Shown: positions 41,453 to 59,515 of the stretch, piece after piece
Layout of the letters: each line of letters starts with the position of its first letter
How positions within the stretch are numbered: the first letter of the stretch is position 1
Source: Candidatus Caccopulliclostridium gallistercoris
GTDB taxonomy: Bacteria; Bacillota; Clostridia; Christensenellales; UBA1242
Reading direction: 5' to 3'
Length of the DNA stretch: 64,000 nucleotides
NCBI GenBank assembly: GCA_018713725.1
Contig: DVOJ01000012.1
Coordinates: 1,225 to 65,224 of the forward strand
Program-made: the position numbers and the translations under genes
Notes under the pieces: model-generated
Seen by the model: the letters and a program-made list of their open reading frames with translations, nothing else
Databases searched by the model: none
What the model was told of the DNA's origin: nothing

Positions 41453-44400
41453 ATGCAAAAGAATAGAAAATTAAATAGCGTAATTTTAAAGGTGGGCATA
41501 ATACTTATATTGCTTGCTGCTTTTGTTGGTGTTGGGCTTTTTAATGTAAATAGAGCCTATGCCGACAGTAGTGAAGTTTCCGTAGAAGAAACTTTGCTAG
41601 GCACAGACACTGAATCGCAAGGCGCAGAAAGTTATAGTGCCTCAGACTTAATAGTAGATGCTGATGCCTTAGCTATAGAAGCCGTGCCGTTTAGTGGTGG
41701 TAAGGGAACTGAAAAAGAACCATACCTAATAAGCGAACCGGGCCATCTTGCTACTATGGCAAATCAAATAAATGGTGGAGATCCAAATAATCATTATAAA
41801 CTCGATGCAAATATTAGCTTAGCCGGTAGAATTTGGATTCCTGCCGGGTATAATACGGAGGATAATCATGCTTTCATCGGTTCTTTTGATGGTAACGGGT
41901 TTACAATTTCCGGGCTTTATGTAGATAATGCTTCTTTATCGCTTAATGGCACAGTAGGCTACGGGCTTTTTGGCGTTTTAGGGCAAGGCGCCACAATTAA
42001 AAACGTTCAAGTAATAGGCGCAAACATAGTTGCGGGTAGCGGATATGCCGGTATTATTGCAGGAAGAGCTGACGGAACAGGGGTTAAAATTGAAGCTTGT
42101 TATGTAACAGGTACAATTAGTAGCACTGGTAATAGGGGTGGTATAATTGGCTATGCTTATTCAGAAACTAGCGTATCTATCGAAAGGTGCTATACAAATG
42201 TTTCTTTTATAGGTTCTTCAAGTTACACTGGTGCTATTTCTGGTAGATATGGTACTGTAACGGATTGTTTAGTCGATTCTTCTTCTAGTTTAATTGGTTC
42301 AAATGGTTCTACAACAAATAGTGCAAGAAGGTCAGGCACTTCTTATACATATTACAATAATTTAGGAAACACTACAACTTCTTCTTCATATCGTAATACA
42401 TTATTAGCTAGAACAACATATACTCCAGTAACTCCTTATGATGTAGATGGTACAAGAACTAAAACACCAATATGGCATGTAGAGGGTAGTGTACTTTATT
42501 TAAATGGGGTAGGAAACGTTTATGTAGATAGTGAATCTTACATTGCAACTCAAGATTATAGTTCGGCAATTAATGAATTAAACAACTTACCATATAATAA
42601 TGAATATAATGTAAATGGAAGTCATTCTGGATTTGCTAAAGGTATTGTTGCTACATCATCGTCTTCTTCGACACAATATTCAGGTTTTTACGAACTTGGA
42701 GAGGCTATTGCTACCGCTTATATAAAACCTAATTCAAATATAAATGTTTGGGTAGGTTATCAAATAACTAATTTAAACTCTGGAAGTTTAGTAAAGAGTT
42801 CGTTTAATTCTGCTCAAAACGTTTCTTCTAATGTTACTTTATATGCAGATAATATAACAGAAGGAACAACGTCAACTTCAAATTCAAATACTTTAACGTC
42901 CGATTCACGTCAAGGCTATTTTGTAATTGACGCTGTATTTGATAATATTTTACGCTCAATTACAGTAACGGCTTATGATGCAACACCCAATCATAGATTT
43001 TCAACAACAATAGGAACTTTAAAAGATTCTTTTAATTATATAGCACATTATAGCACTATTAGTACTAGTATTCAAGGTACTAACGGTTCAATTTCTTTAA
43101 GTGCTCCAACAAATTTAGGTACTTATACAAAAAGAGGTGTTTATAGTACTTCTTCGGCTTCTGGACAGACCTATACTACAAGTTCATATAGCACAAACGT
43201 GGTTTTAGTAAGGTATGGCGATAGTAGTGTTAATATATCTATGAAAGCGCCTTCTGATGCTAACGGTTATACTTATTTAGCTGAATATAGTAGACCAACG
43301 GGTTATACTAGTATTCAATATGATAATCAGTATAGTAGATTAGATTTTAATACTACAATATCATCAAATTGTACAATACAATTATATTTTACCAATGCAA
43401 CAAAGTTAACATTTGCTGAGGGTACTGCGTTGGATCCTGACAATGTAGATCTTGTAAATGTTAGTAGCTCTTATTCGTATTGGGTTTTAAACACCGCATC
43501 TAAAAGTGGATCCAATTTAAATAGAATGATATATCGCTTAAACAAAACCACACTTTCTTCTTCAAGTGCTAGATATTATCAAACAACTCTTCCATCTGCA
43601 ACGGTTAAATATTCTAATCATGTCTTTTATGGTTGGTCTATAGATCAAGATATAGAAATATTTATGGATATAGACACAACTGGTGTGAAAGCACAAGTTG
43701 GCGATACTGGTGTAAGAAAAGAACTTGCACCACACGATTATACTAGGTTCGATGCAAGTTGTCAGGCTCTTAAAGATTGGGGTGTAAGCAGTAGTTCATC
43801 GACATTTAATGGTGGAAGTGATGCATCGTATGGTAATTGGAGCATAGGAACAGGCACAAATTATTTTACCTTGCAACTATATAGCACTTTTACCGTTCCT
43901 ACAGTAGACTGTGACGAATTTAAAATTTCTCTTGGTGTTTTGGATGAAAATGGAATTTATAAAGTAATAAACAATCCAAAAGAACCAAACTATTCTGGCT
44001 CAGATAATCCTAAGGATGAAGGCCCAAAATATATTATAAATTTAGTAGATACTAACAATGATAATAAAGTTGTAATAGAAAATATAGATTGGCATAGAGT
44101 AGATGGCTATATTATTCCTTATGTAAATGGTCATAATTATAAATTCCCAGCTGGGTACGCTTTCCAATTTATATTGGATTACGATTATGGCGTAGGAACC
44201 GCATATTCTAATAGTTTCACTTATTATTTTGCAAATTCCGAAGGTGAACCAGCAACTACAGAATGGAAGGGAAACGCAGGTACTACATATACAATTACTA
44301 GCCCATTATTAGGTAAAGGAACTACTTGTTGGCTAAAATACATTATAGATCAGGCACCTACAGAATTTGAAATAGAAGTTGCTGGGGCAGATGGGGAAGA

Positions 44401-59515: not shown

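Follow-up and report, generated by a model that had tools for sequence, protein, structure and literature searches.

Fibrillar adhesins are very long, threonine-rich and fast-evolving surface proteins in which a rod of stalk domains lies between a surface anchor and an unannotated distal region (Monzon et al., PMC8286594, PMC9210967), and Flg_new is treated as one of their stalk domains, with an unannotated N-terminal region far from the anchor being common (PMC9210967). In the stretch of 64,000 nucleotides analysed here (the window; contig DVOJ01000012.1 of Candidatus Caccopulliclostridium gallistercoris) one gene of 18,063 nt, located at 41453..59515 (+), encodes a giant protein of 6020 amino acids (aa) that is like these adhesins in all of the features named. 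We consider it, with a probability of about 0.7, to be a fibrillar adhesin-like, membrane-anchored surface fibre with a diversifying, putatively ligand-binding outer end, because its layout, as read from the sequence and from structural models, fits the published definition of fibrillar adhesins. A long repeat rod of about 33 Flg_new-type units and at least 11 copies of a second domain, here called X, occupies aa 1371–5732, and a surface anchor is recognized by hydropathy as a helix at aa 5979–6004, which is not among the anchor types of the definition; at the distal end Pfam gives no adhesive domain, and the head is related to a GLUG-type module. The protein differs from described fibrillar adhesins in that a membrane helix takes the place of a sortase motif or known anchor domain, that its size is far above that of typical members, and that its outer ~1000 aa match no adhesive-domain family; adhesion is here putative.

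The B-repeat of Listeria monocytogenes InlB (PF09479; PDB 7pv9, 7nms) belongs to the same Pfam family as the stalk repeats of the giant protein, as seen both from the Pfam gathering score and from the predicted fold (AlphaFold2 and Foldseek, probability 0.98–1.0). InlB, however, has one B-repeat between its LRR/internalin domain and the GW modules, whereas the giant protein has about 30 copies and neither LRR nor GW. Ebh of Staphylococcus aureus and Embp of S. epidermidis are giant surface proteins with a C-terminal membrane anchor, and like the giant protein they begin with a signal peptide, continue as a rod of thousands of residues and end in one C-terminal membrane helix with a basic tail. 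The likeness is one of layout alone, no sequence similarity having been found: Ebh consists of helical FIVAR/GA modules, whereas the giant protein is an all-beta array of Flg_new and X domains, for which Pfam gives Flg_new and Flg_new_2 alone and the structural model contains beta strands throughout. Periscope proteins (SasG, Rib and others; PMC9704523) are also tandem-domain surface rods that project a tip from the cell, but those vary in length by means of near-identical DNA repeats, whereas the repeats of the giant gene lack DNA similarity (no off-diagonal blastn match at E<1e-5) and it is the tip sequence that varies and not the length of the rod, no whole domain being gained or lost among 11 full-length alleles. 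The head aligns at 30–42% identity with the GLUG-motif modules of IgA1-protease-like/M26-family and other large surface proteins (PF07581; PDB 3n6z), but the giant protein has a single full module and a partial copy of ~90 aa, lacks a peptidase domain and is not matched by the Pfam GLUG model. The giant genes of West-Roberts et al. (bioRxiv 10.1101/2023.11.21.568195), for some classes of which attachment roles were proposed, likewise encode giant, mostly extracellular and mostly unannotated proteins, here too in a small genome; those proteins, however, are 10,000 to 85,000 aa long, have many membrane helices and SecA-like domains and are found mainly in Omnitrophota, and the giant protein has none of these features.

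The giant protein is identical to NCBI HIV01556.1 (UniRef100_A0A9D1SZB0), automatically annotated as "InlB B-repeat-containing protein" of Candidatus Caccopulliclostridium gallistercoris, and its general kind is known; the adjoining 358-aa protein is identical to HIV01555.1. The species is uncultured, lives in the chicken gut and is placed in GTDB order 4C28d-15, family UBA1242, and its type metagenome-assembled genome (MAG) is of 1.0 Mb with a GC content of 35.4% (PMC8035907). If this size of ~1.0 Mb is near complete, the giant gene constitutes ~1.8% of the genome. That the species forms spores is indicated by its genes sipL, spoIIR, sleB, ypeB and spoVG.

The gene is a single ATG-started open reading frame (ORF) of 6020 codons with zero internal stops, in agreement with an earlier note on this DNA that had described an uninterrupted frame of this length. 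The base composition of the window predicts a stop with probability 0.076 per codon (about one per 13 codons), which for 6020 open codons gives P ~1e-206, and the longest stop-free run in the other five frames over the same stretch is 99 aa. The gene is preceded by a σ70/σA-type promoter, TTGATA-17-TATACT, at 41383..41411 (+), with 10/12 positions of the consensus TTGACA-17-TATAAT and unchanged across five conspecific contigs, and by the Shine-Dalgarno sequence AAGGGGA at 41440..41446 (+), located 6 nt 5' of the ATG and invariant in the conspecific alignment; both had been pointed out before. So had a terminator after the stop codon, and an intrinsic terminator-like hairpin followed by a T run is indeed located at 59519..59553 (+), beginning 3 nt past the stop and kept in the conspecific contig L028, although its stem is of 16 pairs by the program used, G-C in 3/16 only, and not of the 14 bp counted earlier. 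The mature product should be of ~5983 aa, 659 kDa and pI 4.2, very acidic and with abundant Thr, Ser and Asn.

Metagenome assemblies are the source of the sequences, and giant repeat genes are easily misassembled, which speaks for a chimeric or collapsed repeat assembly, or for a decaying pseudogene that is open by chance, but we give this explanation next to no probability. The exact 6020-aa protein is present on 5 contigs, and the cluster at 90% identity together with a sister cluster contains full-length members of 5995–6092 aa from ENA, NCBI and Logan assemblies. More than 12 independently assembled conspecific alleles (5995–6092 aa) from many independent samples all have the frame open, as do four orthologues of other species as far as the contigs extend (~2900 aa each). 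When the gene is compared with itself no off-diagonal blastn match is found at E<1e-5, and as the repeats are without detectable nucleotide similarity there is nothing for an assembly to collapse. Besides the negligible chance of an open frame of this length, the ratio of nonsynonymous to synonymous substitution rates (dN/dS) in conspecific allele pairs is below 1 in every segment (0.04–0.55), and the protein is therefore under constraint. The giant gene is real and not an assembly artefact.

The stalk has a length of ~4350 aa and two parts. Part 1, aa 1371–4591 (45563..55225, +), consists of super-repeats of ~370 aa, mostly an X domain of ~120 aa plus a Flg_new domain of ~65 aa twice over, and part 2, aa 4592–5730 (55226..58642, +), consists mostly of divergent InlB B-repeats (Flg_new_2) and is 97.5–100% identical among the 11 full-length alleles. 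Tiling of the protein against itself gives internal paralogy over aa 1390–4591 at offsets of 368–375 aa with 25–45% amino acid identity, and the repeats are old and diverged. Flg_new (PF09479) is found with 103.9 and 198.6 bits against a cut-off of 27, and Flg_new_2 (PF18998) with 53.5 and 44.4 bits against a cut-off of 23.6, reaching 58.9 bits on aa 4601–5780, where Flg_new_2 is present in 5 stretches and Flg_new in 3; over the whole protein no other Pfam family is found at E<0.01. A hidden Markov model (HMM) built from the protein's own repeats identifies 33 units between aa 1371 and 5732 (28/33 at i-E<1e-8), while strict regular expressions for the repeat signature give merely 12 and 8 matches. 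The X domains, at least 11 in number, lack a Pfam model; of their two types, Xa is related to Xb (HH probability 96.8%) and neither is related to Flg_new, and an Ig-like beta sandwich is their probable fold. For one super-repeat (aa 3437–3809) AlphaFold2, with the internal copies used as alignment, gives an all-beta model with an overall predicted local distance difference test (pLDDT) score of 78 and 10-residue block means of ~70–90 across the Flg_new parts. With this four-domain model as the query, the top Foldseek matches are Gram-positive surface stalks, namely YwfG, B. anthracis TIE, pilins, SHIRT domains and the InlB B-repeat, and the matches to InlB 36–392 (7nms, 7pv9, 9qr4) with their high probabilities (0.98–1.0) have low TM-scores because the query has four domains. 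A sequence search of the PDB with aa 1371–6020 returned nothing at E<=1e-3.

The ends of the protein were assigned from hydropathy and inspection of the sequence. A Kyte-Doolittle scan of the whole protein gives just two hydrophobic segments, aa ~9–30 and aa 5979–6004. The former belongs to a predicted signal peptide of aa 1–37 (41453..41563, +), with MQKNRK followed by a 22-aa hydrophobic core and NRAYA|DSS, which is 97.5–100% identical in the conspecific pairs compared and whose A-x-A cleavage site is kept in the orthologues of other species. The latter, at 59387..59464 (+), is the top hydropathy peak of the protein with a mean Kyte-Doolittle value of 3.96 and should be a transmembrane helix, followed by the basic, presumably cytoplasmic tail HNRKKKLMQERQQLLR at aa 6005–6020 (59465..59512, +). 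A basic tail after a C-terminal helix agrees with the positive-inside rule. No LPXTG-like motif is present in the last 900 residues, a loose pattern matching only at aa 78 and aa 5068, and the giant protein does not have the features of a sortase-anchored wall protein. Between stalk and helix, aa 5858–5945 (59024..59287, +; GNGTDDYPYEL...) resemble the first ~90 aa of the N-terminal head with 32% identity (pairwise E=2e-6) and also match the heads of the orthologues on L011 and L013; this partial head copy is ~99% conserved among alleles and could be a membrane-proximal or wall-spanning module. A relaxed Pfam scan (E<=5) of the head, the orphan region and the C-terminal module yielded no meaningful family, Big_8 at aa 5754–5822 with E=0.003 being under its cut-off, and a homologue search with the C-terminal 290 aa, which never returned the conspecific ~6000-aa proteins and thus covers other proteins, had no matches. 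Much of the earlier note is borne out by these data: the cleavable signal peptide, the stop-transfer anchor in place of LPXTG, the ~28 copies of the InlB B-repeat (as many units of our own HMM are strong), the PF18998 form in the C-terminal third and the assignment to PF09479 and PF18998, which both score above their gathering cut-offs, and on the whole the proposal of a surface fibre or adhesin, the architecture being that of a secreted, membrane-anchored giant protein with Flg_new-type repeats.

The outer head, aa ~79–360 (41687..42532, +), begins with GKGTEKEPYLI and is homologous to a module that is repeated in GLUG-motif proteins. It has 108 homologues with 30–42% identity, all aligning to this part of the query alone, and many of them are large surface proteins with PF07581 (GLUG) or PF05342 in which the module is present several times. 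In the PDB, aa 80–251 match 3n6z, a "putative immunoglobulin A1 protease", with E=4.8e-7. The following orphan region, aa 361–1370 (42533..45562, +), is the most variable portion of the protein. An exhaustive HMMER search of 1.84 billion representative proteins gave two matches to it, one a conspecific allele and the other a fragment resembling the orthologue on L009, and a second homologue search with aa 361–1370, again one that never returned the conspecific ~6000-aa proteins, gave a single 616-aa fragment. Pfam at E<=5 has one chance-level match in the region (PF09749, E=0.26, 11 bits), and sliding windows compared by hhalign with the Flg_new and X profiles show no relation for aa 301–1000 and a marginal X-like signal near aa 1017–1093 (probability 63%). 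These ~1000 orphan residues, with no detectable relatives in 1.84 billion representative proteins, constitute a target for structure determination.

Contigs with an identical 358-aa neighbour and ~98% identical 11-kb flanks carry very different alleles of the giant gene. In aa 41–1340 the synonymous divergence (dS) is 0.6–1.26 and the amino acid identity only 43–70%, against a background dS of 0.03–0.08. In 200-aa windows over the 11 full-length alleles the minimum pairwise identity is 38–61% in aa 201–1600, >=95% in aa 1801–2800, 81–89% in aa 2801–3800 and >=91.5%, mostly >=98%, in aa 3801–6020. Identity matrices for each segment divide the head into three allele classes, aa 361–700 into about four to five, aa 701–1000 into two that are 42% identical to each other, and aa 1001–1340 into two that are ~60% identical. 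The classes are combined differently from allele to allele: L006 and L026 join the head of the window (98%) to the other class at aa 701–1340, with 43% identity to the window at aa 701–1000; L002 has the class of the window at aa 701–1340 (96–98%) and a differing head (72%); and in L024 a head of the L002 type is joined to the majority class at aa 701–1000. Because discrete classes are combined in these different ways, the variation of the tip is best read as modular recombination between old cassettes. The length range of 5995–6092 aa (~1.6%) is due to small indels, mainly in the first 1800 aa. A diversity-generating retroelement or phase variation as the source of the tip variation was rejected on inspection, without a dedicated search: the variable stretch is more than 1300 aa long, contains many indels and falls into discrete classes, the window ORFs that were scanned include no reverse transcriptase, and neither in the promoter nor in the 5' coding region was a repeat tract noticed. 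The earlier note had mentioned neither how extremely the alleles of the species vary at the outer end nor that aa 361–1370 are without relatives.

According to the surface-fibre reading the signal peptide would direct the protein through Sec, and the single C-terminal helix would act as a stop-transfer anchor, leaving the 16-residue basic tail in the cytoplasm and ~5940 residues outside the cell. The rod should consist of ~45 small beta domains, Flg_new/InlB B-repeats alternating with the unnamed beta domain of ~120 aa, and at 3–4 nm per domain it would be more than 100 nm long and hold the N-terminal region of ~1300–1800 aa far from the cell. This outer region is expected to be the working end, which would either bind a ligand or be seen by phages, the host or other microbes. 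With the signal peptide and the stalk as conserved stretches on either side, its cassettes may be exchanged by homologous recombination, while stalk and anchor are held almost invariant. The gene offers a clean natural example of fibre evolution, in which anchor and stalk are nearly frozen and an outer block of ~1600 aa appears as a few very old recombining allele classes, and the variable tip pinpoints where a ligand-binding or antigenic function should be sought. A bolder version, which we think quite unlikely as a whole, makes the fibre the main device by which a dependent gut Clostridium with a small genome attaches to a specific partner, be it a microbe, the host or a food surface; the tip cassettes (aa ~200–1800, down to ~40% identity) would then be a long-maintained balanced polymorphism that sets the choice of partner, and the orphan region would contain one or more undescribed binding folds.

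Several results weigh against an adhesive fibre with a diversifying tip. Pfam recognizes no adhesive or lectin domain in the giant protein, the single-sequence AlphaFold2 model of aa 361–1010 is unusable with a pLDDT of 32, and we know of no established biochemical role for the GLUG-type module. The Pfam GLUG model PF07581, which the earlier note had listed for a check, has no match on aa 1–360 even at E<=5, though the head is clearly homologous to a module of GLUG-carrying proteins. Since dN/dS exceeds 1 in no segment, diversifying selection is inferred from the pattern of alleles alone, and dS is saturated between the allele classes. Some mosaic alleles from metagenome assemblies could in principle be chimeric; several alleles recur in independent samples. 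The same architecture, with deep allele classes that reassort and lie only in the outermost 1800 aa, would be expected if the protein were a protective or spacing surface coat and the tip varied as a phage receptor or an antigen of antibodies, so that variation meant escape and not ligand specificity, and the very acidic, Thr/Ser/Asn-rich composition and the missing adhesive domain agree with this. We regard a coat as rather unlikely, because a single-copy protein of 6020 aa would be a costly coat material and the head family is found mostly in proteins that others have classed as adhesin-like or protease-associated, but the data given here do not separate coat from adhesion and the two roles are not mutually exclusive.

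The resemblance of the head to 3n6z, and the presence of Peptidase_M26_N in homologues, might instead point to a surface-tethered enzyme akin to the IgA1 or M26-type proteases. The matched module, however, is the non-catalytic N-terminal part of those proteins, and a protease is highly improbable because no peptidase domain is found, either by Pfam at E<0.01 over the whole protein or at E<=5 on aa 1–1370 and aa 4601–6020, and the HExxH motif of the metalloproteases is absent from all 6020 aa. A structure linked to sporulation, such as a spore appendage or a fibre of the forespore or mother-cell membrane, is brought to mind by the neighbours sipL, spoIIR, sleB, ypeB and spoVG, but such a role is very unlikely. 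The giant gene has its own promoter and terminator, and the promoter is of the σA type and by its match to the consensus (10/12) not visibly of the σE, σK, σF or σG type. Moreover, the neighbourhood is not a functional unit, because distant relatives keep the same sporulation genes without the giant gene. We retain the membrane-anchored surface fibre as the favoured reading.

The genes of the window are arranged in the order holB, PSP1/ricT, a methyltransferase gene, rsmI, spmB and spmA (both on the minus strand), tatD, ksgA, four poorly annotated genes, veg (−), sipL, spoIIR (−), sleB, ypeB, a gene with a Rho_N domain, the giant gene, an IS3 element (−), a DHH-family gene (−) and spoVG (−). 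The conserved housekeeping interval proposed earlier holds only loosely: the named genes are present, but ~10 kb of other genes separate rsmA/ksgA from the giant gene, whose immediate neighbours are sipL, spoIIR, sleB, ypeB and the Rho_N gene upstream and, downstream, IS3, the DHH-family gene and spoVG on the opposite strand. When GTDB species representatives were scanned with YpeB, MAGs of five other species (YpeB 70–87% identical) were found to have the same order of ypeB, the Rho_N-domain gene and a giant gene. The flanking proteins of these species are 66–91% identical to those of the window (one short zinc-ribbon ORF up to 100%), and the giant heads are only 33–48% and the orphan regions 24–33% identical. 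In the distant relatives with sequence past ypeB (YpeB 34–52%; L014–L016, L020, L022 and L023) the giant gene is absent from this position. Its G+C content at third codon positions (GC3) is 0.26, and that of the neighbouring genes is 0.22–0.37. Neither the atypical composition nor the patchy presence or variable position of a horizontally acquired island is seen, and because of the synteny in six species and a GC3 within the range of the neighbours the giant gene is old within a small clade, vertically inherited and fast-evolving, and not a recent import. Of the two origins suggested in the earlier note, a lineage-specific gene agrees with its presence in the species and five related ones and its absence there from distant relatives, whereas horizontal acquisition does not fit the shared position and GC3.

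The flanking insertions, which had been taken as marks of mobility, imitate the signs of horizontal transfer and yet are later, strain-specific insertions unrelated to any mobility of the giant gene itself. One resembles a miniature inverted-repeat transposable element (MITE) and is a 194-bp insertion at 41164..41357 in the terminator of the upstream Rho_N-domain gene, of which it duplicates 22 bp at 41142–41163. Of the four other conspecific contigs in the alignment, only L003, which matches the strain of the window, has this insertion; L001, L002 and L004 lack it. A core of 22–26 bp is common to this insertion and to the intergenic sites 35276–35301 and 4287–4308, and short mobile repeats of this kind may form a small family. 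The other is an IS3-family element at 60034..61333 (−; approximate ends), with orfA at 60940–61251, orfB at 60095–60943 and the domains rve, HTH_21 and HTH_Tnp_1; no matching target-site duplication was seen at its ends. It is missing from L028, with which the window is colinear to ~60030 before the two diverge.

The IS3 element sits exactly at this point of divergence. Past the terminator of its giant gene L028 has a convergent ORF of 2642 aa at 9194–17122 (−), with a signal peptide, a C-terminal membrane helix, the tail LRKKMKVR and no Pfam match, followed by a TraG/VirD4-like coupling protein (region 9194–18445, compared with ~60030–61354 in the window), and the window nowhere contains the 2642-aa gene. 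The difference points to a deletion or rearrangement associated with the insertion sequence, or to a mobile element in L028. An ORF of at least 2115 aa in L020 (15178–21522, −) has 37% identity to the 2642-aa ORF over 2231 aa; L020 comes from a distant relative (YpeB ~52% identical), in which this ORF lies a few kb past ypeB and the Rho_N-domain gene. Giant membrane-anchored ORFs of a second family, which has no Pfam matches, therefore recur near the locus. In L022, from a MAG of a Clostridia member of the Hadza gut (YpeB 34%), an unrelated ORF of at least 3277 aa (11407–21318, +) directly follows ypeB, so that from lineage to lineage the position is occupied by different giant surface genes. 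This ORF has a lipoprotein-type signal and no Pfam match, and its aa 1040–1100 resemble the start of a GLUG-type head.

The 358-aa protein encoded at 40063–41139 (+) of the window has a weak match to Rho_N alone and directly follows ypeB in most of the examined relatives with enough sequence at that point, whether or not they carry the giant gene. Between strains with giant-gene tips of ~40–70% identity this 358-aa protein is 100% identical. Further upstream three consecutive large genes, encoding 738, 534 and 1040 aa, are located at 16214–23179 (+). The 738-aa product is a TMEM164-like membrane domain fused to an ABC ATPase, the 534-aa product is without a Pfam match and the 1040-aa product has a Big_2 Ig-like domain, and the three may constitute another surface-protein or export cluster.

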